From positions 269,792 to 333,791 of the forward strand of contig CAZVHP010000001.1 in the NCBI GenBank assembly GCA_964627305.1: a DNA stretch of 64,000 nucleotides, written 5' to 3'. Below, in pieces: positions 22,652 to 62,233 of this stretch (position 1 is the first letter of the stretch; each line of letters opens with the position of its first letter). Position numbers and translations under genes: made by a program. This stretch comes from an uncultured Ignavibacteriales bacterium (lineage in GTDB: Bacteria > Zixibacteria > MSB-5A5 > GN15 > FEB-12). The notes under the pieces were generated by a model. It ran no database searches, was not told the DNA's origin, and saw only the letters and a program-made list of their open reading frames with translations.

Positions 22652-24415
22652 TTACATCTTGAGCTGTTTACGGGCGAGTTCGCCATACAACGCAGATCGC
22701 TCCAGCAATTGCTCATGCGTGCCCTGATCGACAATCGTCCCCCTGTCCATTACGATGATCCTGTCAGCGTCGCGAACCGTAGCCAGCCGGTGGGCAATGA
22801 TGATCGATGTCTTTCCCTTAAGTGCCTTGTCGAGCGCCTGCTGAATCAATTCTTCGCTGCGCGTGTCCAGCGATGATGTGGCCTCGTCCAGCAGCATGAT
22901 GGGCGGATCCTTCAGTATGGCCCGCGCCAGGCACACTCGCTGACGTTCCCCACCAGAGAGAGTCACCCCGCGCTCGCCAACTTCGGTCTGGTATCCATCG
23001 GGCAAAGATGCAATGAAATCATGGATGTTCGCGATTCTGGCAGCTCGAATGATCCGGTCCAGGTCGGCATCAGGATCGCCATAGGCGATGTTCTCCCGCA
23101 GCGATGCCTTGAACAGCAGCGGCTCCTGATCGACCAGCCCAATCTTAGATCGCAGATCTTTCACCAGCACTCGTCTGACATCAACGCCGTCTATAAGAAT
23201 GCAACCCCGGTGAGGATCAAAGAAACGCAGGATCAGGTTGATGACCGTTGTCTTGCCGGCCCCGGATGGTCCGACAATGGCAACCCGTTCGCCCGGCGCG
23301 ATTGACAGCGACACATCCCTAAGCCTGAAGCCGTTGTCGTCATACGCAAACGACACTCCTTCAAACACGATATGGCCGCGCACATGTTTGAGGTGCATCG
23401 GGTTCTCATCCTCGGCCACCGCCGGCCCAATGTCAAGATACTCAAAAATGCGATGTACCGAGGCCATCGCAATTTCTACGTCGACATTGATCTGCGCCAG
23501 ATCCTGGATCGGCGAATAGAGATAGCCGACGAGAATGTAGAACGCCAGCAGAGTCCCCAGCAGCACGGTATCGCCGGCCACCAGATAGGCGCCCCAGGCC
23601 AGTACTGCAATCGGTGCCAGCATCGTCACGAACTGCACCAGGTTGATTGCCAGCGACGTGAAGACACTGTTTCTAATGTACAGTCCGGTCAGGGATTTCA
23701 GGACACCGTCGGTAGTCTCTTTCTCGCGACGCTCCTGTGCAAACGCCCGGATCGTCCGAATGGCCGAGAACGACTGCTGGTAGCGCCCGGACAACCGTGC
23801 GATCGTCTCCTGCAGCGCCCGGCTTATCCGATGCAGCGACAGCCCGAAGCGATTGGAGAGGAAGATCGTAATCGGCACCGGGATGAGTACTATCAACGTC
23901 CACTTCCAATTCCACACGAGAAGAACCGTAAGGACACCCGCAACCAGCAGGACGTTCATGACAAACATCAACAGCGTCGATGACAGCAGTTGCTGAACGC
24001 GCTGCACGTCCGAGAGCAGCCGTGACATTATTTCCCCGACCTGATTCCTTTGAAAGAAGCGCAGCGGCACATTGGTAAGATGATCGAACAACTCGCTGCG
24101 CATATCCGCGATGATACTCGCCCCTACCCGACCGGCCAGGTAGTCGCGCACCACGGAGAGCCCCAGATTAGCGAGATAGATTCCGGCCAGAAAAGCGCCG
24201 TAGTAAACCACCGGCGTGGCATTCGGGTTGCCCCCTGATTCTCGCTGCTCGGCCAGATCGGGAATGAGATCATCGATCAGGTACTTCAGGGCCAGCGGCA
24301 TGGCAATCGTGACGACCGTCAAAGCGATCATCGTGGCGAACAGCAACAATTCCAGTTTCCAGTAGGGCCTGAGATAGTACCAGAGCCGCCTACGCGTTTT
24401 GGCGTCGGGTATCAT
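22652..24415 (-). CDS. ABC exporter, fused permease/ATPase (MsbA-like half transporter); no N-terminal peptidase domain
   Basis: Six-TM domain followed by Walker A GPSGAGKTT, signature LSGGERQR and Walker B IMLLDEATS. Start set at ATG 24415 (GGGAG upstream), overlapping the preceding gene by 26 nt. Confidence 0.9.
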   Translation of the reverse strand: MIPDAKTRRRLWYYLRPYWKLELLLFATMIALTVVTIAMPLALKYLIDDLIPDLAEQRESGGNPNATPVVYYGAFLAGIYLANLGLSVVRDYLAGRVGASIIADMRSELFDHLTNVPLRFFQRNQVGEIMSRLLSDVQRVQQLLSSTLLMFVMNVLLVAGVLTVLLVWNWKWTLIVLIPVPITIFLSNRFGLSLHRISRALQETIARLSGRYQQSFSAIRTIRAFAQERREKETTDGVLKSLTGLYIRNSVFTSLAINLVQFVTMLAPIAVLAWGAYLVAGDTVLLGTLLAFYILVGYLYSPIQDLAQINVDVEIAMASVHRIFEYLDIGPAVAEDENPMHLKHVRGHIVFEGVSFAYDDNGFRLRDVSLSIAPGERVAIVGPSGAGKTTVINLILRFFDPHRGCILIDGVDVRRVLVKDLRSKIGLVDQEPLLFKASLRENIAYGDPDADLDRIIRAARIANIHDFIASLPDGYQTEVGERGVTLSGGERQRVCLARAILKDPPIMLLDEATSSLDTRSEELIQQALDKALKGKTSIIIAHRLATVRDADRIIVMDRGTIVDQGTHEQLLERSALYGELARKQLKM

Positions 24416-25823
24416 CCAGCCACTCCCGGAAGTAGTTGCGGGCCGCAAATGCTCTTGCCTCCGGCGCCAGGGCCGTCCGCATTCGTTCCAGCCGCTCGTT
24501 CATCATGCTTTCCCACAGACGAACACCATCCCCGCTGAGGTCCCGCGAGGGGACCACCTGCATGCTTGCTTCGTACTGGTCGGCTGCATCTTTCCACCAG
24601 TCACCAGAGTTGAACTCCGCACCGAACTGTGACTGATACCACTCTCGCTGGTCGTCCACGGCGCATCCCGGAAAGTGCATGTAGCCATGAGGCGCCCATA
24701 TCAGATACGAGGGCGACTCCTCCAGCTCTCGATCCATGAACGCAAAGGTCTCATCCAGCGTCTGCCGCGTTTCACCCGGATGATTGAATATCACATTGGC
24801 TCGATGCATTATGCGATGCCTGGTTAGAAGACGGCTGACATGCCGAAACTGCTGCAGATAGCGCTCCGGGTGACGAGTCTTGTTCATGAGTCGGAGCATA
24901 TCCAGAGAGCCGCTCTCCAGCCCAAACTGAACCTCCACCTTCAGGTCCGCAAGCATGGCGATATCTCTCTCATCAAGATACTCCGGGCGCGTTTCGAAGA
25001 CAATCCAATAGTCATCTCCGCGCTCGCATAGCTTGCGAAGGAACTCCCTGCGCCACGACGGTCTCATGCCAAAGCAGGCATCGGCGATTGCGATTGAGTG
25101 AGGCGTCAAGAAGTCGTACAGGCGTTCCATTTCATCGAGGGCGGCAGCGACCGTGTACGACCGCCAGCGTCGGTCCTTGGTCGGCTCCATGCAGAACGAG
25201 CAGGCAAACGGGCATCCCCGCGAGAGATACAGGCACGGCCCCTTGATGCCCTCCGGTACATGTTCCCGAACGAAATCGGCCAACAGGTCCCACCGATAGG
25301 GAACGAAATGCTCTTCGCCGACTGCCGCTCCCCGGATCACCCGCGTTGCATTCGGTCGCCCCTCCCGGGCGTGTCGCTCGGCCACGTGTTCCAGCGCCAG
25401 CTCACCCTCGCCGCAGACCACAAAATCAAACAGCCCGCTGCCGTTGTCAAATTCGTTTGGCCGGGCTGTGACGTGGTATCCGCCGACGACTATGAGTTTC
25501 TCAGGGAACAGATCCCGACAAATCCGAGCCACAGACAGCGTCGCACGATACGACAGCGATGTCCAGCAGGAAATCGCCAGAATATCAAACTCGTGCGATA
25601 GAAGAAAGCGCCGAACGTGTCGCTCATAGCGGCGGATTTGCGTGGGGCTGTTGGGGCGTCCGATCTGCTGCTCGAAATCGGCATATGACACCCCGAAGCG
25701 CCGGCTCAGGTACGATGCCAGCCAGACCAGCGACGTCTTGAGTTCCGCCCGCTCCATCCACGGTGGGTAGAAAAAGCAGGACGGATGAAGTAAGAGAATG
25801 TGCGGCGTCTTACCGCTGGTCAT
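24390..25823 (-). CDS. B12-binding-domain radical SAM enzyme
   Basis: N-terminal Rossmann-like B12-type domain (ILLLHP...ILAISCWTS...LIVVGGYHVT) followed by YLSRGCPFACSFC (CxxxCxxC). ATG 25823 overlaps the upstream gene stop by 14 nt. Confidence 0.8.
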   Translation of the reverse strand: MTSGKTPHILLLHPSCFFYPPWMERAELKTSLVWLASYLSRRFGVSYADFEQQIGRPNSPTQIRRYERHVRRFLLSHEFDILAISCWTSLSYRATLSVARICRDLFPEKLIVVGGYHVTARPNEFDNGSGLFDFVVCGEGELALEHVAERHAREGRPNATRVIRGAAVGEEHFVPYRWDLLADFVREHVPEGIKGPCLYLSRGCPFACSFCMEPTKDRRWRSYTVAAALDEMERLYDFLTPHSIAIADACFGMRPSWRREFLRKLCERGDDYWIVFETRPEYLDERDIAMLADLKVEVQFGLESGSLDMLRLMNKTRHPERYLQQFRHVSRLLTRHRIMHRANVIFNHPGETRQTLDETFAFMDRELEESPSYLIWAPHGYMHFPGCAVDDQREWYQSQFGAEFNSGDWWKDAADQYEASMQVVPSRDLSGDGVRLWESMMNERLERMRTALAPEARAFAARNYFREWLDDTRRQNA

Positions 25824-26925
25824 CAGGTACGACCACCCGTTCGTGCTCGGCCCTGAACGGTGCCAGAAGTTCGGCCATCTGTTCAGTGATGGTCGGCTCG
25901 ATCCCGCGCTTCCGTTCAATCTGGTAAATGCAGTACGGGTTGTTAGCCCGTTCGCCCGAAGCTGACACCGAGGTCGTCATACAGCCACCCCTGCACAGCG
26001 GCAGGAACTGACAATCGCGGCACTCACCAGAGGCTGTGTCGCGCGTGAACTTACGATTGTACAGGAACCTGGTCGGGTCGTTCCATATCCTGGTGAACGA
26101 TGATTCCCGAATATTGCCCTCGACGAACTCCGGTTGCTGCGACAGACAACCCTTCACATCCCCGTTTGAGCAGATCCCGGCCACGCGCGTGCCGGCATAG
26201 CATCCCAAGTACGGCACATCATCCAGCAGCTTGCTGCCCTTGCAGCCGTAATAGCCGATATTCTCGCCGACATCGATCGGGACCCGTCCGTCTCTCTTGA
26301 GTTCCATGATCTTGTCGATCATCCGTTCGAACAACTCAAGATCCATCACCATGTCCTTCTGCATCCGCCCGGTGACAGTCGTCATCTGGATCCGCCATTC
26401 GCTGGCGCCGACATCAACAAGGTCCTTGTAGATGTGATCGAGGTCGTCAATGTTGACCCGTGAAACCTGCGTGACAGCCTCGAACCGCTGCCCGGCTGCG
26501 CGCAAGTGCCGCATCGCATTGAGTGCTCGCTCGTAGCTTGACTTGTGCTGACGGATATAGTTGTGCACATCGCGGCTGCCGTCGAAACTGACCCCGATAT
26601 TGCCGAAGCCAATGTCCACGAACTGCCGGGCGATGTCCTCAGTCACCATGTAGCCGTTCGTGATCAGAAAAGTGCCTATCCCGCGCTCTTTGCTGCGACG
26701 CGCCAGCACCGGCCAGTCCTTCCGCATCAGCGGTTCCCCGCCGGACAGTGTTAACCCCCGGCAGCCAAGATCCGCCAACTCATCGATCAGTGCCAGCGAC
26801 TCCTCTGTCGTCAGTTCATCACTGCGCGGAACACCGGCAGAAGTCCCGCAATGGATACAACGCATATTGCAGGCATAGGTGATCTCCCATACGACTTGTT
26901 CTGGGAAGAACTTGAACTCACTCAT
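25810..26925 (-). CDS. Radical SAM/SPASM-domain enzyme (no N-terminal extension)
   Basis: CxxxCxxC at residues 19-26 (YACNMRCIHC). C-terminal SPASM-type Cys pattern GCYAGTRVAGICSNGDVKGC ... CRDCQFLPLCRGGC. Its SD GGAAAGGAG lies inside the last codons of the upstream gene. Confidence 0.85.
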   Translation of the reverse strand: MSEFKFFPEQVVWEITYACNMRCIHCGTSAGVPRSDELTTEESLALIDELADLGCRGLTLSGGEPLMRKDWPVLARRSKERGIGTFLITNGYMVTEDIARQFVDIGFGNIGVSFDGSRDVHNYIRQHKSSYERALNAMRHLRAAGQRFEAVTQVSRVNIDDLDHIYKDLVDVGASEWRIQMTTVTGRMQKDMVMDLELFERMIDKIMELKRDGRVPIDVGENIGYYGCKGSKLLDDVPYLGCYAGTRVAGICSNGDVKGCLSQQPEFVEGNIRESSFTRIWNDPTRFLYNRKFTRDTASGECRDCQFLPLCRGGCMTTSVSASGERANNPYCIYQIERKRGIEPTITEQMAELLAPFRAEHERVVVPDDQR

Positions 26926-26928
26926 CTG

Positions 26929-28308
26929 TTACTCCTTTCCGGCGGTTCGCACTTCGGAGGCCTGTTGCGCCTGTTGACGACGCTGCATCTCCTGCTGTCG
27001 CGAAACCGCGATAATTTCCAGCATCGGCTGCAGGTTGTGCTTCCAACCCTCGCACATCTGCTCATCGGACAGCCCTCGGTCCACCCGACGGGCCGGACAG
27101 CCCCCCATGCAGACAGGAAGGACACTGCACTCAAGGCATCGACTGTCTTCAAAGGGGGTATATTCAAAAAGCCGCGTGAAATTCGGATGCAGCAAGTTGA
27201 TTTCATCCATAATCGTTCCCGAGGCTTTGCTCTGATCACCGACATCATTCCAGCAGCGGTAAAGCCACCCCTCGGGATCGACAAGAAACGCGTTGACCGT
27301 CTGCGTCATGCAGAACGTCGAAATCGGCGAGGGGAGTTTCTGGATCACGAAACCCCGCTGGAGCAGTTCATGGTAGTACTGCACCTCAATCTGGGAGAAA
27401 TCCGCCACCTCATAGCAGGCCTCAGCGATATTCGAGCAGACCTGTGACGCCGCCTCTACCATGCCGAAATACACCCCCACTTTGTCCCGCAGCCCCGCTT
27501 CCACAAGCTCGTCGAGCAACTCGCTGATGTCATCGACGGTAAACGACTTGTCGACATTTACACGAACCCCGATCTGCATCTTCCGTTCAACGGCCGCCTG
27601 TACGTTGACGATAATGCGATCAAAGCTGTCACCGCCGTTTCGCAACGGACGCTTCGTATTGTGAAGCCGCGCCGGGCCGTCCAGAGTCACCTGCGCGCTG
27701 AAGACTCGAAGCCCCATCAGTCTGTCCACTGTCTCCGGGGTCAGCAGGTAACCGTTGGTGACAATCGATGAGCTGTAGTCAAATTTGTACTCCTGTCCAA
27801 GATCGAGAAAAGACTCCGTGAGATCCTCGATCACGTCCAGAGCCAGCAGCGGCTCCCCGCCGTACCAGCCAACATCGAGCGCTCCGATTTGTCTTGCCTG
27901 CTTTTCAACAAACTCTATGACGGCCTCGATGACTTTCGGAGACATCTTCGTGGCAGTGTGTTTCTCAAAACAATAGGTACAGGCCATGTTGCAGGCCATT
28001 GTCGGTGCTATGACCAGGCCCAGCCCCGTGCGATTGAATCGGCTGAGGTTATGAGCCAGTTTGAGCCTGGTGATCTCGTCCACATCACCAGTGTGCACGA
28101 AACACCCATACTCGAGCTGCTTCAGTAATTCGCTTTCCGATTCGGTCAGCTCAGGTGAAGGATTCCGCTCGAGCTTGGCTGCCAACTGCTGATACACCTC
28201 CAGGTTCTCCTGTGTCATCAGCGCCACCGCGCCGGATAGGGCATTGTAGGCGAGGACATAACCATCCTGCCACGGGTGGAAATGGTTGTATCGAGATATC
28301 TTAGGCAT
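26929..28308 (-). CDS. Radical SAM/SPASM peptide maturase with about 100-residue N-terminal (RRE-position) extension
   Basis: CxxxCxxC at Cys106/110/113 (MACNMACTYC). N-terminal YNALSGAVALMT segment as in AslB/sactisynthase-type enzymes. C-terminal CLECSVLPVCMGGCPARR SPASM motif. Confidence 0.85.
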   Translation of the reverse strand: MPKISRYNHFHPWQDGYVLAYNALSGAVALMTQENLEVYQQLAAKLERNPSPELTESESELLKQLEYGCFVHTGDVDEITRLKLAHNLSRFNRTGLGLVIAPTMACNMACTYCFEKHTATKMSPKVIEAVIEFVEKQARQIGALDVGWYGGEPLLALDVIEDLTESFLDLGQEYKFDYSSSIVTNGYLLTPETVDRLMGLRVFSAQVTLDGPARLHNTKRPLRNGGDSFDRIIVNVQAAVERKMQIGVRVNVDKSFTVDDISELLDELVEAGLRDKVGVYFGMVEAASQVCSNIAEACYEVADFSQIEVQYYHELLQRGFVIQKLPSPISTFCMTQTVNAFLVDPEGWLYRCWNDVGDQSKASGTIMDEINLLHPNFTRLFEYTPFEDSRCLECSVLPVCMGGCPARRVDRGLSDEQMCEGWKHNLQPMLEIIAVSRQQEMQRRQQAQQASEVRTAGKE

Positions 28309-28456
28309 GATAAGTATCCATGGTGCGAACTTCGAGACGAGGGTTACCAGTGTCTTTGCGCCGGCTCTCCGTCTGTTACGTGGTCCTTGCTATCTCCTGC
28401 CGGCCGATCAGCATCTCTCAGGGAAGTCGTTGTGACACGACAACCGAAGAACTGGC

Positions 28457-28483
28457 TCGCGCCGTGCGAGGGCCACGGCGCGA
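28457..28483 (-). terminator. Perfect 10-bp GC-rich hairpin between precursor gene and first maturase (partial terminator / mRNA-stabilising element)
   Basis: TCGCGCCGTG-CGAGGGC-CACGGCGCGA, starting 20 nt after the precursor stop. On the mRNA it is followed by GCCAGUUCUUCGGUUGUCGUGU, which is U-enriched but not a clean U-tract. Confidence 0.55.
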
Positions 28484-28503
28484 ACCATAGTCTCTGCAAT
28501 CGC

Positions 28504-28626
28504 TTAGATCTCGACCGGATCAATACCGTACAACGGCTTAATCCCGCAGTAGGTCGAGCACTTCAGTCTGCAGTCGCCGGTAACCGACTGACGCAGCGTG
28601 TTCTGCGGATCGATCAAATAGATCAT
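28504..28626 (-). CDS. 40-aa Cys-x3-Cys-x3-Cys peptide, candidate RiPP precursor (not in the ORF track)
   Basis: ATG 28626 preceded by GGGAGGTG plus a 6-nt spacer. Translation is MIYLIDPQNTLRQSVTGDCRLKCSTYCGIKPLYGIDPVEI with stop TAA at 28504-28506. 31 of 40 codons end in G/C, like the neighbouring genes. It is the first gene of the rSAM operon. Confidence 0.8.
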   Translation of the reverse strand: MIYLIDPQNTLRQSVTGDCRLKCSTYCGIKPLYGIDPVEI

Positions 28627-28845
28627 TCAATTCACCTCCCTTCGATCATTCCGCGGTTCACTCCTGTGCCTTACCCGTCCGTATTTCCATTCTGGCGGCA
28701 AGGCTCACCTCGTGGCACGTAGCACCACATAGCTATGAGTACGGGACGGCCCGCAGGGGACCTCCCGGCTATTAAGATTCGACCGGTTCATACTTCCAGA
28801 TGATAGCAGTTTCAAAGATGTTATTCTAACTCTCGATTATCTGGT

Positions 28846-28875
28846 ATTATAATCACATGACCCGCACGCGGTCAA
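28846..28875 (-). promoter_or_regulatory. Sigma70-like promoter of the precursor/rSAM operon
   Basis: On the minus strand: TTGACC (28875-28870), 18-nt spacer, TATAAT (28851-28846). It sits in the only AT-rich patch of the region and implies a 5' UTR of about 210 nt. Confidence 0.55.
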
Positions 28876-29272: not shown

Positions 29273-30253
29273 ATGCTGAGCCGGAAGGATGCTCGAGTTG
29301 TCGAGCGACCAACCCGCGAAAGGCTGGCTCTTCGCACGTTCACGGCCGTGCTCTGTCTGCTCGTGACGGGGGATATCTTGGCTCAAGACACATTCGAGCC
29401 ACCCGCCTCTGGCTTTGAGACCGGCTGGGAGCGGTCCGAGCAACTGCTTACCTTCATCGGGCATGATCTCTACGCGCATATCAACGGCGGCGCCGAGTTG
29501 TATCACGAGTTCGGATTCGACCGGCTCCATGTTCAGTATTACCGGAAGGCTGACCAGGAACTGACCCTTGAGGTGTACCTGATGACCGACCCCAACGCTG
29601 CCCTCGGACTCTACCTGCTGAAGGCGGCCCAGGAGAGTCCCGTTGACGGCATCCGCGAACGTAACAGCGGCGATGCTTCGCAGATTGTCGTCGTCAAGGG
29701 AAGTGCTTTTGTCAGAATCAACAACTACACTTTCACCGACTCCCTGTTGCCGACGATGGTCAATCTGGCCAACACGGTGACCGTGAATCTTCCCGATGAG
29801 CCGGCTCCAGCCTTGCTCAGCCGTTTGCCCCTCACAGGTCTCCAGCACGGGACTGAGCGCATCATTCGCGGTCCCTACGCACTGGCCCAGGAAGCGAATC
29901 TCGGTCAGGGCGACATCCTGCAACTGGCTGGCCGCATTTGGGGGGTGCTCGGACGATACACTGATCAGCATGACTCGACCTTCACGCTTATCGAAGTCCG
30001 CTATCCCGATCCGGAGCGCGCAGGCGCCGCATTCAATCATCTGATGCACAACCTTAATGAACTGCAGACCATCATAGAGAAAGAGCGCCTCTCATTCACT
30101 TTCCGGGACCATCGCGGCCGATTCGGTGAGGTGACGGTCCGGGACACGATAATGGTATTGAACCTGGATATGTACAGCCGTGACAGCCATCCGGCTGCCG
30201 GCGATGCTGATACCACGACCGCCTCTGGTCCTTCTGATGCTCCGAAACCCTGA
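29273..30253 (+). CDS. Secreted hypothetical protein
   Basis: AAGGAGG 10 nt upstream of ATG 29273. Signal-peptide-like N terminus (LALRTFTAVLCLLVTGDILAQD) and high GC3. No motif recognised. Confidence 0.6.
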   Translation: MLSRKDARVVERPTRERLALRTFTAVLCLLVTGDILAQDTFEPPASGFETGWERSEQLLTFIGHDLYAHINGGAELYHEFGFDRLHVQYYRKADQELTLEVYLMTDPNAALGLYLLKAAQESPVDGIRERNSGDASQIVVVKGSAFVRINNYTFTDSLLPTMVNLANTVTVNLPDEPAPALLSRLPLTGLQHGTERIIRGPYALAQEANLGQGDILQLAGRIWGVLGRYTDQHDSTFTLIEVRYPDPERAGAAFNHLMHNLNELQTIIEKERLSFTFRDHRGRFGEVTVRDTIMVLNLDMYSRDSHPAAGDADTTTASGPSDAPKP

Positions 30254-53021: not shown

Positions 53022-55301
53022 ATGGATCCCAAAGTAGGAATCTACATATGCAAGGGTTGTGACATCGCTAAGGCCGTCGATGTCGACAAGCTTGTCGAGG
53101 AGGCCGGCAAGGGCAAGAACGTCGCCGTGTGCAAGGCACAGGATGTGATGTGCGCCCGTGAAGCGGTGGAACAGATTAACAAGGATATCGAGTCCGAAGG
53201 TCTCAACAGAGTTGTCATCGGCGCCTGCTCGCCGCGCGTATTCCCTGAAGTCTTCGATTTCGGACCGAAGGTGCTTACCGAGCGTGTCTCGCTGCGCGAG
53301 CACGTTGCCTGGTCTCACGAAACCGACGATGAAGAAGACATGGAAATGCTGGCCCAGGACTATATGATGATGGGTCTGGCCAAAGTCAATCACACTGAAC
53401 CGCCCGAGCCGTTCATCGCCGAGACCTCCAAAGATGTCCTCGTCGTCGGCGGTGGTGTCGCCGGCATGACGGCCGCTCGTGCCATTGCCGACGCCGGCTA
53501 CAAGGTGCACCTGGTCGAGAAGGAAGACCATCTCGGCGGCTGGGCTGCCAGGTATGCGAAGGTCTTCCCGAAACAGCCTCCGTATGATTCGCTTGAGGAC
53601 TTCGATGTCGACTCGCTCATCAAGACCGTTGAATCCCACGACAAGATCACGGTCCACAAATCCTCTGCCGTCAAGAAGAGCAAAGGACAACCGGGCGAGT
53701 TCATGGTTGAACTGAGCAATGGCTCCGCCCCCGAACCGTTTACAGTCGGAGCCATCATTCTCGCGTCCGGCTGGAAACCTTACGATCCGGCCAAACTGGG
53801 CAAGTGGGGATACGGCATTTCGCCGGACGTCATCACCAACGTCCAGATGGAAGACATGATGAAAAGCGGCGCCATCAAGCGCCCGTCAGATGGCAAAGCC
53901 CCCGAAAGCGTCGCGTTCATCCAGTGTGCCGGTTCGCGCGACAAGGACCACCTCCCGTATTGTTCGGCCGTGTGCTGCCGGGTGTCGCTCAAACAGGCGA
54001 AATACGTGCGTGAAGCATACCCCGATGCCAAGGTCTACATCATCTACAAGGACCTCCGTTCGCCACAGCAGTATGAGTTGTTCTATCAGAACGCACAGGC
54101 CGATGAAGGCATTTTTTTCACCAAAGGCGAAATCGGTGAGGTAACCTCCAACGGCGATGGTCGGGTGACTATCAATGTCTCCGAAACGCTGCTTGGTGAG
54201 GATATCCAGGTCAAGGCCGATATGGTCGTGCTGGCGGCTGGTATGGTGCCAACCACCAGGGTCGAGGGCGTCAAGGGTGATCTCGACGTCATGGCCGAGG
54301 TGGCCGAGATGCTCGATGCCGGTGAGATTCCCAAGGAGGAAGAGAAGGAAGAGGCACTCGAGGACGGCAAAAAAGCCGCTGCCGGAGCCGAAAAGGGCGC
54401 CAAAATCCTGAACCTGTCCTATCGCCAGGGAACGGACCTGCCCACTCTCAAGTACGGTTTCCCGGACTCCCACTTCATTTGTTTCCCCTATGAAACCCGC
54501 CGCACTGCCGTTTACGCGGTCGGAGGTGTTCGTGCCCCTATCGACATTGCCGGCACCATCAACGATGCCTATGGAGCCGGGCTGAAAGCCATTCAGGCCG
54601 TGGAATCCATCGCCAGGGGAGCCGCCGTGCATCCTCGCGCGGGCGATCTGTCGTATCCGGAGTTCTTCCTGCAGCGTTGCACCCAATGCAAGCGATGTAC
54701 CGAAGAATGTCCGTTTGGAGCTCTCGATGAAGATGACAAGGGTACGCCCAAGCCGAACCCCTTCCGGTGCCGTCGTTGCGGCGTCTGCATGGGGGCCTGC
54801 CCGGAGCGTATTGTCACCTTCAAAGACTACAACATCAGCATGGTCTCCAATATGATCCGGTCGATCTCCATGCCCGATGAATTCGACGAGAAACCGCGAA
54901 TACTCGCTTTCGTGTGCGAGAACGATGCCATGCCCGCACTGGAGATGGCTTCCTCATTGCGCATGAAGTACAACGAGATGATTCGCATCATCCCGTTGCG
55001 CTGCCTGGGCTCCATGAACACCATCTGGATCAGCGATGCCCTTTCCAACGGTTTCGATGGTGTCATCCTGCTGGGCTGCCGCAAGGGAGAGGACTACCAA
55101 TGCCACTTCGTCCGCGGCTCGGAACTCGCCCAGTACCGGATGGAGAATGTCAGGGAGAAACTCAAACAACTCGTGCTTGAGGAAGAACGGGTCGAGGTCC
55201 ACGAAGTCGCCATCTCCGAGTTTTACAAAATCCCGAAGATCTTCAATGACTTCCTGGAAACCATCGAGTCGGTCGGCCTGAATCCCTATAAAGGCATGTA
55301 G
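53022..55301 (+). CDS. qmoB: QmoB (HdrA-like flavoprotein with ferredoxin and C-terminal MvhD-like domains)
   Basis: 759 aa. N-terminal VGIYICKGCDIA, VVGGGVAGMTAA, CTQCKRCTEECPFGAL / CRRCGVCMGACP, and C-terminal ILAFVCENDA...LRCLGS...GVILLGCRKGEDYQCHF (MvhD-like). Confidence 0.85.
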   Translation: MDPKVGIYICKGCDIAKAVDVDKLVEEAGKGKNVAVCKAQDVMCAREAVEQINKDIESEGLNRVVIGACSPRVFPEVFDFGPKVLTERVSLREHVAWSHETDDEEDMEMLAQDYMMMGLAKVNHTEPPEPFIAETSKDVLVVGGGVAGMTAARAIADAGYKVHLVEKEDHLGGWAARYAKVFPKQPPYDSLEDFDVDSLIKTVESHDKITVHKSSAVKKSKGQPGEFMVELSNGSAPEPFTVGAIILASGWKPYDPAKLGKWGYGISPDVITNVQMEDMMKSGAIKRPSDGKAPESVAFIQCAGSRDKDHLPYCSAVCCRVSLKQAKYVREAYPDAKVYIIYKDLRSPQQYELFYQNAQADEGIFFTKGEIGEVTSNGDGRVTINVSETLLGEDIQVKADMVVLAAGMVPTTRVEGVKGDLDVMAEVAEMLDAGEIPKEEEKEEALEDGKKAAAGAEKGAKILNLSYRQGTDLPTLKYGFPDSHFICFPYETRRTAVYAVGGVRAPIDIAGTINDAYGAGLKAIQAVESIARGAAVHPRAGDLSYPEFFLQRCTQCKRCTEECPFGALDEDDKGTPKPNPFRCRRCGVCMGACPERIVTFKDYNISMVSNMIRSISMPDEFDEKPRILAFVCENDAMPALEMASSLRMKYNEMIRIIPLRCLGSMNTIWISDALSNGFDGVILLGCRKGEDYQCHFVRGSELAQYRMENVREKLKQLVLEEERVEVHEVAISEFYKIPKIFNDFLETIESVGLNPYKGM

Positions 55302-55331: not shown

Positions 55332-55363
55332 AGAACCCCCAAACTTGGGGGTTCTTTTCATTT
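55332..55363 (+). terminator. Rho-independent terminator after qmoB
   Basis: AGAACCCCC-AAACTT-GGGGGTTCT followed by TTTCATTT. Confidence 0.8.
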
Positions 55364-58408: not shown

Positions 58409-59869
58409 ATGGTGGTGAAAGCACCGCGAGTGGTTGTTGCCGGGCTGTCGGGAGACAGCGGCAAGACCATTGTCAGTCTGAGTCTGATTACCGGACTGCG
58501 CGAACGCGGCTTGGCAGTCGCCCCATTCAAGAAAGGCCCGGACTACATTGACCCCGCCTGGCTTGCCTGGGCTGCCAAGGCTACCTGCCGTAACCTGGAC
58601 ACCTTCCTGGTCGATGAGTCGGTGGTGGCGCACACGTTCTCCCGCCACGCTGCTGCTTCTGAGATAGCGGTCATCGAAGGAAACAGAGGCCTGTTCGACG
58701 GTCGCGACGTTTCCGGATCGCATAGTACTGCGGGGCTTGCAAGGCTCTTGCAAGCCCCGGTTGTATTGGTGGTCAATGCCACCAAGACAACCCGTACTGC
58801 CGCCGCCCTTGTCCATGGTTGTATGACCTTCGAAGACAACGTGAAGATTGCCGGTGTTGTCCTCAACCGGATCGCCGGCACTCGACACGAAAGCGTCACC
58901 CGCCAGGCCATCGAGTCTGCCTGCCGGATTCCCGTCCTGGGTGTCATTCCCAAACTCAGGGAATCACGTTCCCTGATTCCCGGACGTCACCTCGGGCTTG
59001 TACCGCCAACCGAATTGGATGAACAAGCGGCTGTGAGACAACGTATGACTGAGATCGCCAACAGCTACCTCGACCTCGACCGGATCCAGGCCATTGCCGC
59101 CCAAGCCCCGCCCCTGGGAGCTGCTGATCCGGTGAGTCAATCCGTCACCGCCGATCCGGTAAGAGTTGGTGTCTTTCGCGATTCTGTCTTCACCTTCTAC
59201 TACCCGGAGAACCTTGAAGGCCTTCAGCGCGAGGGAGCAACGATTGTTCCAGTCTCATCACTTGAGGATAGTTGTCTGCCGCCGATCGATGCCCTCTACA
59301 TTGGTGGAGGCTTCCCTGAGACGCACGCCGAGCGACTGATTGCCAATCGATCCCTGATGGCCTCCGTCCGTGAGGCAGCCGAGCGCGGACTGCCCATCTA
59401 TGCCGAATGCGGTGGCCTGATCTATCTGGCGCGGTCGGTGACATGGAATCAACAGCGCTACGATATGGCCGGGGTCTTTCCCATTGATCTGATTATGACC
59501 TCCAGGCCTGCCGGTCACGGTTACGTGGAGGCCGAGGTGGACAGCCCCAACCCCTTCTTCCCGATCGGCACCCGCATCAGAGGTCACGAGTTTCACTACT
59601 CCACTCCCGCCGACAAGCCTCATGCGGCTACGTGCCTTGCAATGAAGTCAGGAGTCGGCTTTGCGGACAAGCGCGATGGGTTGATCGCCGGCAGCGTCCT
59701 CGCTGCCTACAGCCACATCCACGCCGAAAGCGTCCCCTCATGGGCCGAAGCCGTGGTCTGTCGAGCGCGCGAGTACCGTAAGGCGGCAGCAAGGTCTGCG
59801 TCCGGTCAGACAAACGGTGAAAGCGATACAGAAGAGAGTGATTTGGACTCCAATAGGGTTTGTGTGTAA
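58409..59869 (+). CDS. dsrN: DsrN (cobyrinate a,c-diamide synthase homolog, siroheme amidase)
   Basis: CbiA/CobB-type N-terminal ATPase (VVVAGLSGDSGKT) and a C-terminal glutamine amidotransferase domain (YAECGGLIYL), in the position typical of dsrN. Confidence 0.8.
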   Translation: MVVKAPRVVVAGLSGDSGKTIVSLSLITGLRERGLAVAPFKKGPDYIDPAWLAWAAKATCRNLDTFLVDESVVAHTFSRHAAASEIAVIEGNRGLFDGRDVSGSHSTAGLARLLQAPVVLVVNATKTTRTAAALVHGCMTFEDNVKIAGVVLNRIAGTRHESVTRQAIESACRIPVLGVIPKLRESRSLIPGRHLGLVPPTELDEQAAVRQRMTEIANSYLDLDRIQAIAAQAPPLGAADPVSQSVTADPVRVGVFRDSVFTFYYPENLEGLQREGATIVPVSSLEDSCLPPIDALYIGGGFPETHAERLIANRSLMASVREAAERGLPIYAECGGLIYLARSVTWNQQRYDMAGVFPIDLIMTSRPAGHGYVEAEVDSPNPFFPIGTRIRGHEFHYSTPADKPHAATCLAMKSGVGFADKRDGLIAGSVLAAYSHIHAESVPSWAEAVVCRAREYRKAAARSASGQTNGESDTEESDLDSNRVCV

Positions 59870-62073: not shown

Positions 62074-62092
62074 TCGCATATTGCCGGACTCC

Positions 62093-62125
62093 AGGCCGAG
62101 AGACTTCAGCCTCTCGGCCTGCTTT
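62093..62125 (+). terminator. Perfect 10-bp hairpin after dsrC (likely terminator or processing site)
   Basis: AGGCCGAGAG-ACTTCAGC-CTCTCGGCCT followed by GCTTTC (weak T-tract). Confidence 0.5.
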
Positions 62126-62233
62126 CGGGCAACAAACAGGACGGTTTTTATCCCGTCAGTCGATCCTGAGTGCCAGACTAGCCCTGCAAATCAGGTATCA
62201 TGGACAAGCAGGTGAAAAATCGCCAAATATAGG

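Follow-up and report, generated by a model that had tools for sequence, protein, structure and literature searches.

Hairpins that stand between a precursor gene and the genes for its modifying enzymes occur in lantibiotic and sactipeptide operons, with nisA-nisB and sbo-alb as examples. A literature search for precursor hairpins in these two classes returned little, and we found no mention of Clo7bot in it. In the streptolysin S cluster, a rho-independent terminator lies directly behind sagA, and one promoter serves the whole cluster (PMC4786598). B. subtilis epeXEPAB likewise has a terminator between the precursor gene epeX and the radical SAM epimerase gene epeE, and the region is under post-transcriptional control (PMC12871923). 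Among other gene classes, ABC importer operons of Ruminiclostridium cellulolyticum contain internal terminators with longer G+C-rich stems and low-U tails that set stoichiometry, and the folding energy of these terminators affects the stability of the upstream transcript (PMC9045158). Hairpin-dependent segmental mRNA stability has been described for puf of Rhodobacter capsulatus and for papB-papA (Belasco 1985; Klug & Cohen 1990, as cited in PMC7509114); in these operons the 5' segment of the mRNA persists for long and the distal one decays quickly, with no need for a U-tract. A sequence-only reading that preceded the present analysis had called the arrangement at our locus a known one in lantibiotic and sactipeptide operons. 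Published work documents such an arrangement in sagA (PMC4786598) and in epeX-epeE (PMC12871923).

The element that we analyzed lies in a 64-kb stretch of DNA, and "the window" refers to that whole stretch. The 27-mer TCGCGCCGTG-CGAGGGC-CACGGCGCGA occupies positions 28457-28483 of the plus strand and occurs once in the window. As shown in the list below, it has a small precursor ORF on one side and the gene of the first modifying enzyme on the other, all three on one strand, in a cluster whose features are all on the minus strand:

28846..28875, minus strand: sigma-70-like promoter TTGACC-18-TATAAT, 11/12 matches, ~213 nt upstream of the precursor ATG
28633..28640, minus strand: Shine-Dalgarno (SD) sequence of the precursor, GGGAGGUG, with a duplex energy of -15.6 kcal/mol with the anti-SD
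28504..28626, minus strand: 40-aa RiPP precursor ORF, MIYLIDPQNTLRQSVTGDCRLKCSTYCGIKPLYGIDPVEI, with homologous small ORFs in ~75 related loci
28453..28487, minus strand: stem-loop of 14 bp, including the 10-bp perfect core at 28457-28483, with the 7-nt loop GCCCUCG
28309..28452, minus strand: spacer of 144 nt behind the 14-bp stem, starting GUUCUUCGGUUGUCGUGU, without a promoter-like site and without a good SD
26929..28308, minus strand: radical SAM/SPASM peptide maturase 1, 459 aa, with a weak SD and NCBIfam matches below cutoff
25810..26925, minus strand: radical SAM/SPASM protein 2, 371 aa, with its SD, AAGGAG, inside the end of gene 1
24390..25823, minus strand: B12-binding radical SAM protein, start uncertain (the ORF opens at 25919 and its first ATG is at 25823)
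22652..24448, minus strand: ABC exporter (permease/ATPase fusion), the last gene of the cluster

Upstream of the cluster, the gene calls of an identical contig (L161) place a divergent gene at 29273-30253 on the plus strand, matching PF20244 (DUF6599); the intergenic region between this gene and the precursor is 646 nt long.

Read along the transcript (minus strand), the element is UCGCGCCGUG-GCCCUCG-CACGGCGCGA, and its arms are the same on both strands. The sequence-only reading had the arms and the position right and quoted the loop from the plus strand. The perfect, GC-rich 10-bp hairpin that it described was found at 28457-28483, where 8 of the 10 core pairs are G-C, and both of its distances match the sequence: the core starts 20 nt past the TAA stop of the precursor (28506..28504), and 148 nt separate the end of the core from the maturase ATG (28308). 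Pairing extends beyond the core to 14 pairs (28487..28453), one of which is U-G, and this longer stem starts 16 nt past the stop. The folding free energy, a check suggested at the outset, was -28.2 kcal/mol for the 14-bp stem folded alone (z = -4.96; equaled by 0/200 shuffles) and -19.7 kcal/mol for the 27-nt core alone, and the opposite strand of the same 14-bp segment reached -24.1 kcal/mol, compared to -28.2 kcal/mol for the sense strand.

The host genome has 57% G+C and folds readily. A sliding local fold on both strands of the window gave 318 structures of -20 kcal/mol or lower, and the whole 64 kb contains four perfect stems of 10 bp or more, as might be expected if the element were a chance G+C-rich inverted repeat with no function. 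Set against this background, however, the hairpin is the second-strongest locus among the 318 structures, and, of 5000 dinucleotide shuffles made from the 195-nt spacer, 10 contained a perfect stem as long as this (10 bp or more, with a loop of 3-10 nt). We gave low weight to the element being a REP-like or other dispersed repeat: it has 1 match in the window with up to 3 mismatches allowed, and no match in other loci. A search of Rfam 15 returned nothing at the gathering score, and an E-value threshold returned a chance match to SNORD17 (E = 0.21).

Other folds in the window were also recorded. The strongest local fold, at 62081-62132 (-35.3 and -32.0 kcal/mol on the two strands), is intergenic and adjoins a 115-aa minus-strand ORF; it has an 11-bp perfect stem, CAGGCCGAGAG...CTCTCGGCCTG, followed on the plus strand by CTTTCGGG. 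A perfect 13-bp inverted repeat at 58731-58759, CGGGGCTTGCAAG-GCT-CTTGCAAGCCCCG, apparently lies within or just upstream of a long plus-strand ORF (58409..59869 in the mechanical listing).

We then compared the locus with its relatives. Scans of reference genomes and metagenomes yielded about 80 maturase relatives at 48-66% identity, and those from the genome scan were labeled mostly as Zixibacteria MAGs or uncultured Ignavibacteria-group MAGs. Nearly all relatives have 1-4 tandem precursor genes upstream of the maturase; ~75 related loci show this layout. The precursors of the family follow the pattern M-[IVL]-[YF]-L-I-D-P, a Cys-rich core and P-L-Y-G-[IV], which the 40-aa ORF of the window fits. 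Because the small ORF belongs to this family set upstream of maturases, it is, judged by homology, a real and conserved precursor gene, in agreement with the earlier claim that it is functional. The hairpin lends independent support to the view that the 40-aa ORF is a genuine gene with strong expression, at the head of a four-enzyme/exporter operon.

The 40-aa precursor has no match among Pfam or NCBIfam models, and eight diverse family precursors scanned against NCBIfam gave no real match. The best NCBIfam scores of maturase 1 were 359 bits for TIGR04334 (cutoff 600) and 304 bits for TIGR04463 (cutoff 525); by these profile scores it is related to the Cys-rich-peptide maturases of the two models and a member of neither. 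More broadly, no curated model covers the RiPP family made up of window positions 22652-28875 (minus strand) and loci L001-L049 and L081-L113. Its ~75 loci carry precursors, two radical SAM/SPASM enzymes, a B12-radical SAM enzyme and an ABC exporter, and the family maturases fall below every NCBIfam cutoff (best, TIGR04334 at 359/600 bits).

A protein database search with the 40-aa precursor matched only the precursor itself, and the sole contig returned for the exact precursor (L161) is identical to the window over 5.1 kb. Being identical, this contig offers no close variants in which compensatory changes in the window stem could show. The closest relatives in the metagenome scan have 65-66% maturase identity, with none closer, and the closest relative (L081, 65%) has strong hairpins past both of its precursors.

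To compare hairpins across the family, we searched each stretch between a precursor stop and the following gene for its best single stem-loop. The search gave 100 distinct best hairpins, of which 82 had -18 kcal/mol or lower; they usually start 8-53 nt past the precursor stop (median, 17.5 nt) and are found past internal precursor copies as well as past the last one. The median best fold in these post-precursor regions was -24 kcal/mol, compared to -15 kcal/mol in shuffles. All 50 dinucleotide shuffles were beaten by 52% of the regions behind a last precursor and by 50% of those between precursors; by the local-fold measure, about half of the regions were no better than shuffles. Local folds at or below -22 kcal/mol were 6.1x denser in the post-precursor regions than on the same strand in the rest of the loci (p = 3e-35; ~73 loci). 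We looked in particular for absence of the hairpin at orthologous loci, which had been named beforehand as the observation that would speak against it, and found that most of the ~75 loci carry a strong stem-loop. The exceptions are L001-L003, which are among the closest relatives (61-62% maturase identity) and have a weak hairpin past the second precursor and none past the third. These three loci, which lack a strong hairpin past the last precursor, are what a functionless repeat might look like, but the 6.1x enrichment at this position and the half of all regions that beat every shuffle make such a neutral origin very unlikely, and we disfavor it.

The hairpin sequences themselves are unrelated in most loci, and the arm sequence of the window is present in no other fetched locus. 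When the best hairpin was searched independently on each strand, the sense hairpin was the more stable one in 67 regions and the antisense hairpin in 27 (p = 4e-6). Unrelated sequences together with better folding of the sense strand are what selection on RNA structure predicts, and what is conserved is a stable hairpin in position, not its sequence. This bears on a further alternative, in which the perfect 10-bp inverted arms, with their 7-bp spacer and their place upstream of the enzyme genes, would form a palindrome that acts as DNA, either as the operator of a dimeric regulator or as a cruciform. Orthologous loci, however, keep the pairing and not the sequence, and hairpins also follow internal precursor copies. 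The stability bias toward the sense strand, which arises through G-U pairs (67:27 in the family; -28.2 versus -24.1 kcal/mol here), counts against a DNA palindrome as well, because a double-stranded DNA site would show none. We therefore regard an action at the DNA level as extremely unlikely.

We note some regularities in the composition of the arms. Purines dominate the 5' arms of the post-precursor hairpins in the related loci, at 66% of paired 5' positions. Among these arms, many read GGGAGGG or GGAGGGAGC, paired with CCCTCCC (e.g., L010, L011, L014, L016, L032, L038, L040 and L111). In hairpins of the GGGAGGG type, an SD-like arm is sequestered by an anti-SD-like arm; the window hairpin has no such arms.

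Past the stem, the tail GUUCUUCG has 4 U in 8 nt (in its longer form, GUUCUUCGGUUG, 4 U in the first 8), which agrees with the earlier description of a U-enriched stretch rather than a clean U-tract. Like a canonical intrinsic terminator, the element has a G+C-rich 14-bp stem-loop shortly 3' of a stop codon; its 4/8 U falls short of the U-run of such a terminator (about 5/8 or more). The weighted T score was 1.63 at the tail of the hairpin, versus 2.85-3.68 at two other terminator-like sites in the window, and the other hairpins near gene ends in the window have tails with 3-6 U/8, a local range that includes the 4/8 found here. Since a consensus terminator scan did not call the site, the label "canonical terminator" was not adopted, and because of the U-tract shortfall we term the element an intercistronic attenuator/stabilizer stem-loop instead. 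The family gave a similar picture, as 5 or more U among the 8 nt that follow the stem were found for 3/82 strong hairpins, and the T fraction in the 10 nt past the hairpins was 0.24, versus 0.22 across the regions overall. A tolerant window puts the fraction with a U-tract at 12%, a marginal enrichment. As a class, the family hairpins are not canonical intrinsic terminators.

Elsewhere in the window, a textbook intrinsic terminator is present at 55332-55355 on the plus strand, AGAACCCCCAA-ACTT-TTGGGGGTTCT followed by TTTCATTT (tail also given as UUUCAUUU), past a 759-aa gene that ends at 55301. The organism therefore uses canonical U-tract terminators at some gene ends.

We next asked where transcription of the enzyme genes might start. 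A scan for sigma-70-type sites found none between the hairpin and the maturase. Across the family, sites with at least 10/12 matches occur at 1.07/kb upstream of the first precursor, versus 0.09/kb in the spacer and 0.09/kb in coding sequence, i.e., they are ~12x denser upstream of the first precursor than in either, and they usually lie 190-315 nt from the first precursor ATG. Because promoter-like density is high upstream of the precursor and at background in the spacers, these data support, for the sigma-70 type only, a single promoter ahead of the precursor. Since neither the spacer here nor those of the family hold a sigma-70-like promoter, expression of the enzymes probably requires read-through.

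The same observations weigh on the possibility that the hairpin fully terminates a monocistronic precursor transcript and that the maturases are expressed from a promoter of their own within the 148-nt spacer. The hairpin is at least as strong as those at convergent gene ends in the window and has a similar tail; the spacer would be long enough for a promoter, and some orthologous spacers reach 300-550 nt. Many loci, however, have a spacer of 59-90 nt that is mostly filled by the hairpin, and this fact, together with the missing sigma-70-like site here and a site density in family spacers equal to the coding background, makes complete termination quite unlikely.

The translation signals of the cluster differ strongly between precursor and enzymes. 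SD energies had a median of -13.5 kcal/mol for 99 precursors versus -4.8 kcal/mol for 59 maturases (p = 2e-24); the precursor SDs are near-perfect (AGGAGGUGA), with 96% at or below -8 kcal/mol, compared to 10% of the first maturase genes. The corresponding values in the window are -15.6 kcal/mol for the precursor, -3.1 kcal/mol for maturase 1, whose SD had already been described as weak, and -8.2 kcal/mol for the second radical SAM gene. As a separate observation, the leader (28627-28845, minus strand) is long, and its length is seemingly conserved across related loci. An alignment of 300 nt of leader from 62 loci, made to find a shared leader RNA, aligned nothing but the SD.

One sub-clade, with leader peptides of the form MLFLVDPxKPT, departs from the rest of the family in that its post-precursor hairpin is conserved in sequence, as GGCATGGAAAGGG-loop-CCCTTTCCATGCC. 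Copies are present in L031 (3943-3974), L091 (2438-2469), L098 (~2433-2462), L113 (1399-1430, and also ~155-185) and L090 (~375-407), with variants in L005, L034, L036, L049 and L082/L108. The maturases next to this hairpin share only 49-62% identity. Within the 1.02 Mb of fetched loci the motif has no further occurrence, and a compensatory change from CATGG/CCATG to CACGG/CCGTG is present in one copy. Conservation of this kind suggests sequence-specific recognition in the sub-clade. The RiPP family and the sequence-conserved hairpin of this one clade are more unusual than the window hairpin.

These features of the sub-clade would fit a sequence-specific regulatory RNA element, such as one bound by an antiterminator, an RNase or some other RNA-binding protein, by which the enzymes are switched rather than passively damped, and there is a parallel in B. 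subtilis, where the sRNA FsrA targets the terminator region of epeX-epeE (PMC12871923). Neither the sub-clade motif nor any other locus, however, shares sequence with the window hairpin, and in most loci the hairpins are unrelated in sequence. We identified no regulator gene among those of the cluster, nor any Rfam match. For the window we consider such a switch unlikely. A broader proposal would make the post-precursor stem-loops a dedicated, largely U-tract-independent RNA control point rather than passive terminators. A factor would read the GGCAUGGAAAGGG hairpin in at least one clade and so gate enzyme versus precursor expression, and the window hairpin would be a diverged member; we hold this, too, to be a doubtful idea with a small chance of being right.

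Taken together, the data lead us to favor, with a probability of roughly 70%, an intercistronic RNA stem-loop that would act as a leaky terminator, as a barrier to decay from the 3' end, or as both, and would thereby raise precursor expression over enzyme expression; both the effect on mRNA and its route are inferred. The sequence-only reading had likewise proposed a leaky terminator or stabilizing hairpin, and the recurrence of the hairpin, its sense-strand bias and the lack of a downstream sigma-70-like site support that proposal. In the mechanism that we envisage, a single transcription unit would run from the promoter at ~28875 through a ~210-nt leader, the precursor, the hairpin, the two radical SAM/SPASM genes and the B12-radical SAM gene to the exporter. 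The 14-bp G+C-rich hairpin could halt some of the polymerases, by leaky termination at the weakly U-rich tail. Alternatively, or in addition, it could block 3'-to-5' exonucleases, such that a precursor-only segment would outlive the distal enzyme segment. Either route would leave more precursor mRNA than enzyme mRNA, and the contrast between a very strong precursor SD and an almost absent maturase 1 SD would push protein output in the same direction.

Weak termination and 3'-decay protection are not mutually exclusive. For the family they are indistinguishable because its hairpins are mostly without a U-tract. As in a puf-type decay barrier, the element is a stable intercistronic stem-loop of the sense RNA (67:27 sense bias in the family), and the tails are not U-rich. 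Since U-tracts are rare, our preference for the family taken as a class is protection from decay or an attenuation that needs no U-tract. Weak intrinsic termination is just as possible for the window copy, given that its 4/8 U tail matches those of other terminator-like hairpins in the window.

The ~75 loci share a recurrent signature, in which a small ORF with a strong SD is followed by a stable stem-loop and a maturase gene with a weak SD. This signature could help genome miners to find precursor genes that gene callers overlook. The loci also offer a ready-made collection of intercistronic hairpins poor in U-tracts, from a phylum that has been little studied, usable for probing stoichiometry without canonical terminators.

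Finally, we compared the window hairpin with the systems described at the outset. The difference from puf and pap is that theirs is an arrangement of defined RNase E cleavage sites and several hairpins; the likeness is a stable hairpin past small, abundant structural genes with no need for a U-tract. The R. cellulolyticum terminators belong to another gene class and another phylum, and termination efficiencies were measured there; they resemble the window element in being a stem-loop past a highly expressed first gene, with a long G+C-rich stem and a low-U tail. In sagA-sagB and epeX-epeE, the elements are rho-independent terminators in Firmicutes, where U-tracts are the rule, whereas the tails of the window and its family are weakly or not U-rich and the host is Zixibacteria-like. 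What these two systems have in common with the window is a strongly translated small precursor in first place, a stem-loop before the first enzyme and a single upstream promoter, which in the window is a predicted one. The window hairpin is, in sum, an ordinary design feature of RiPP operons, of a known kind.
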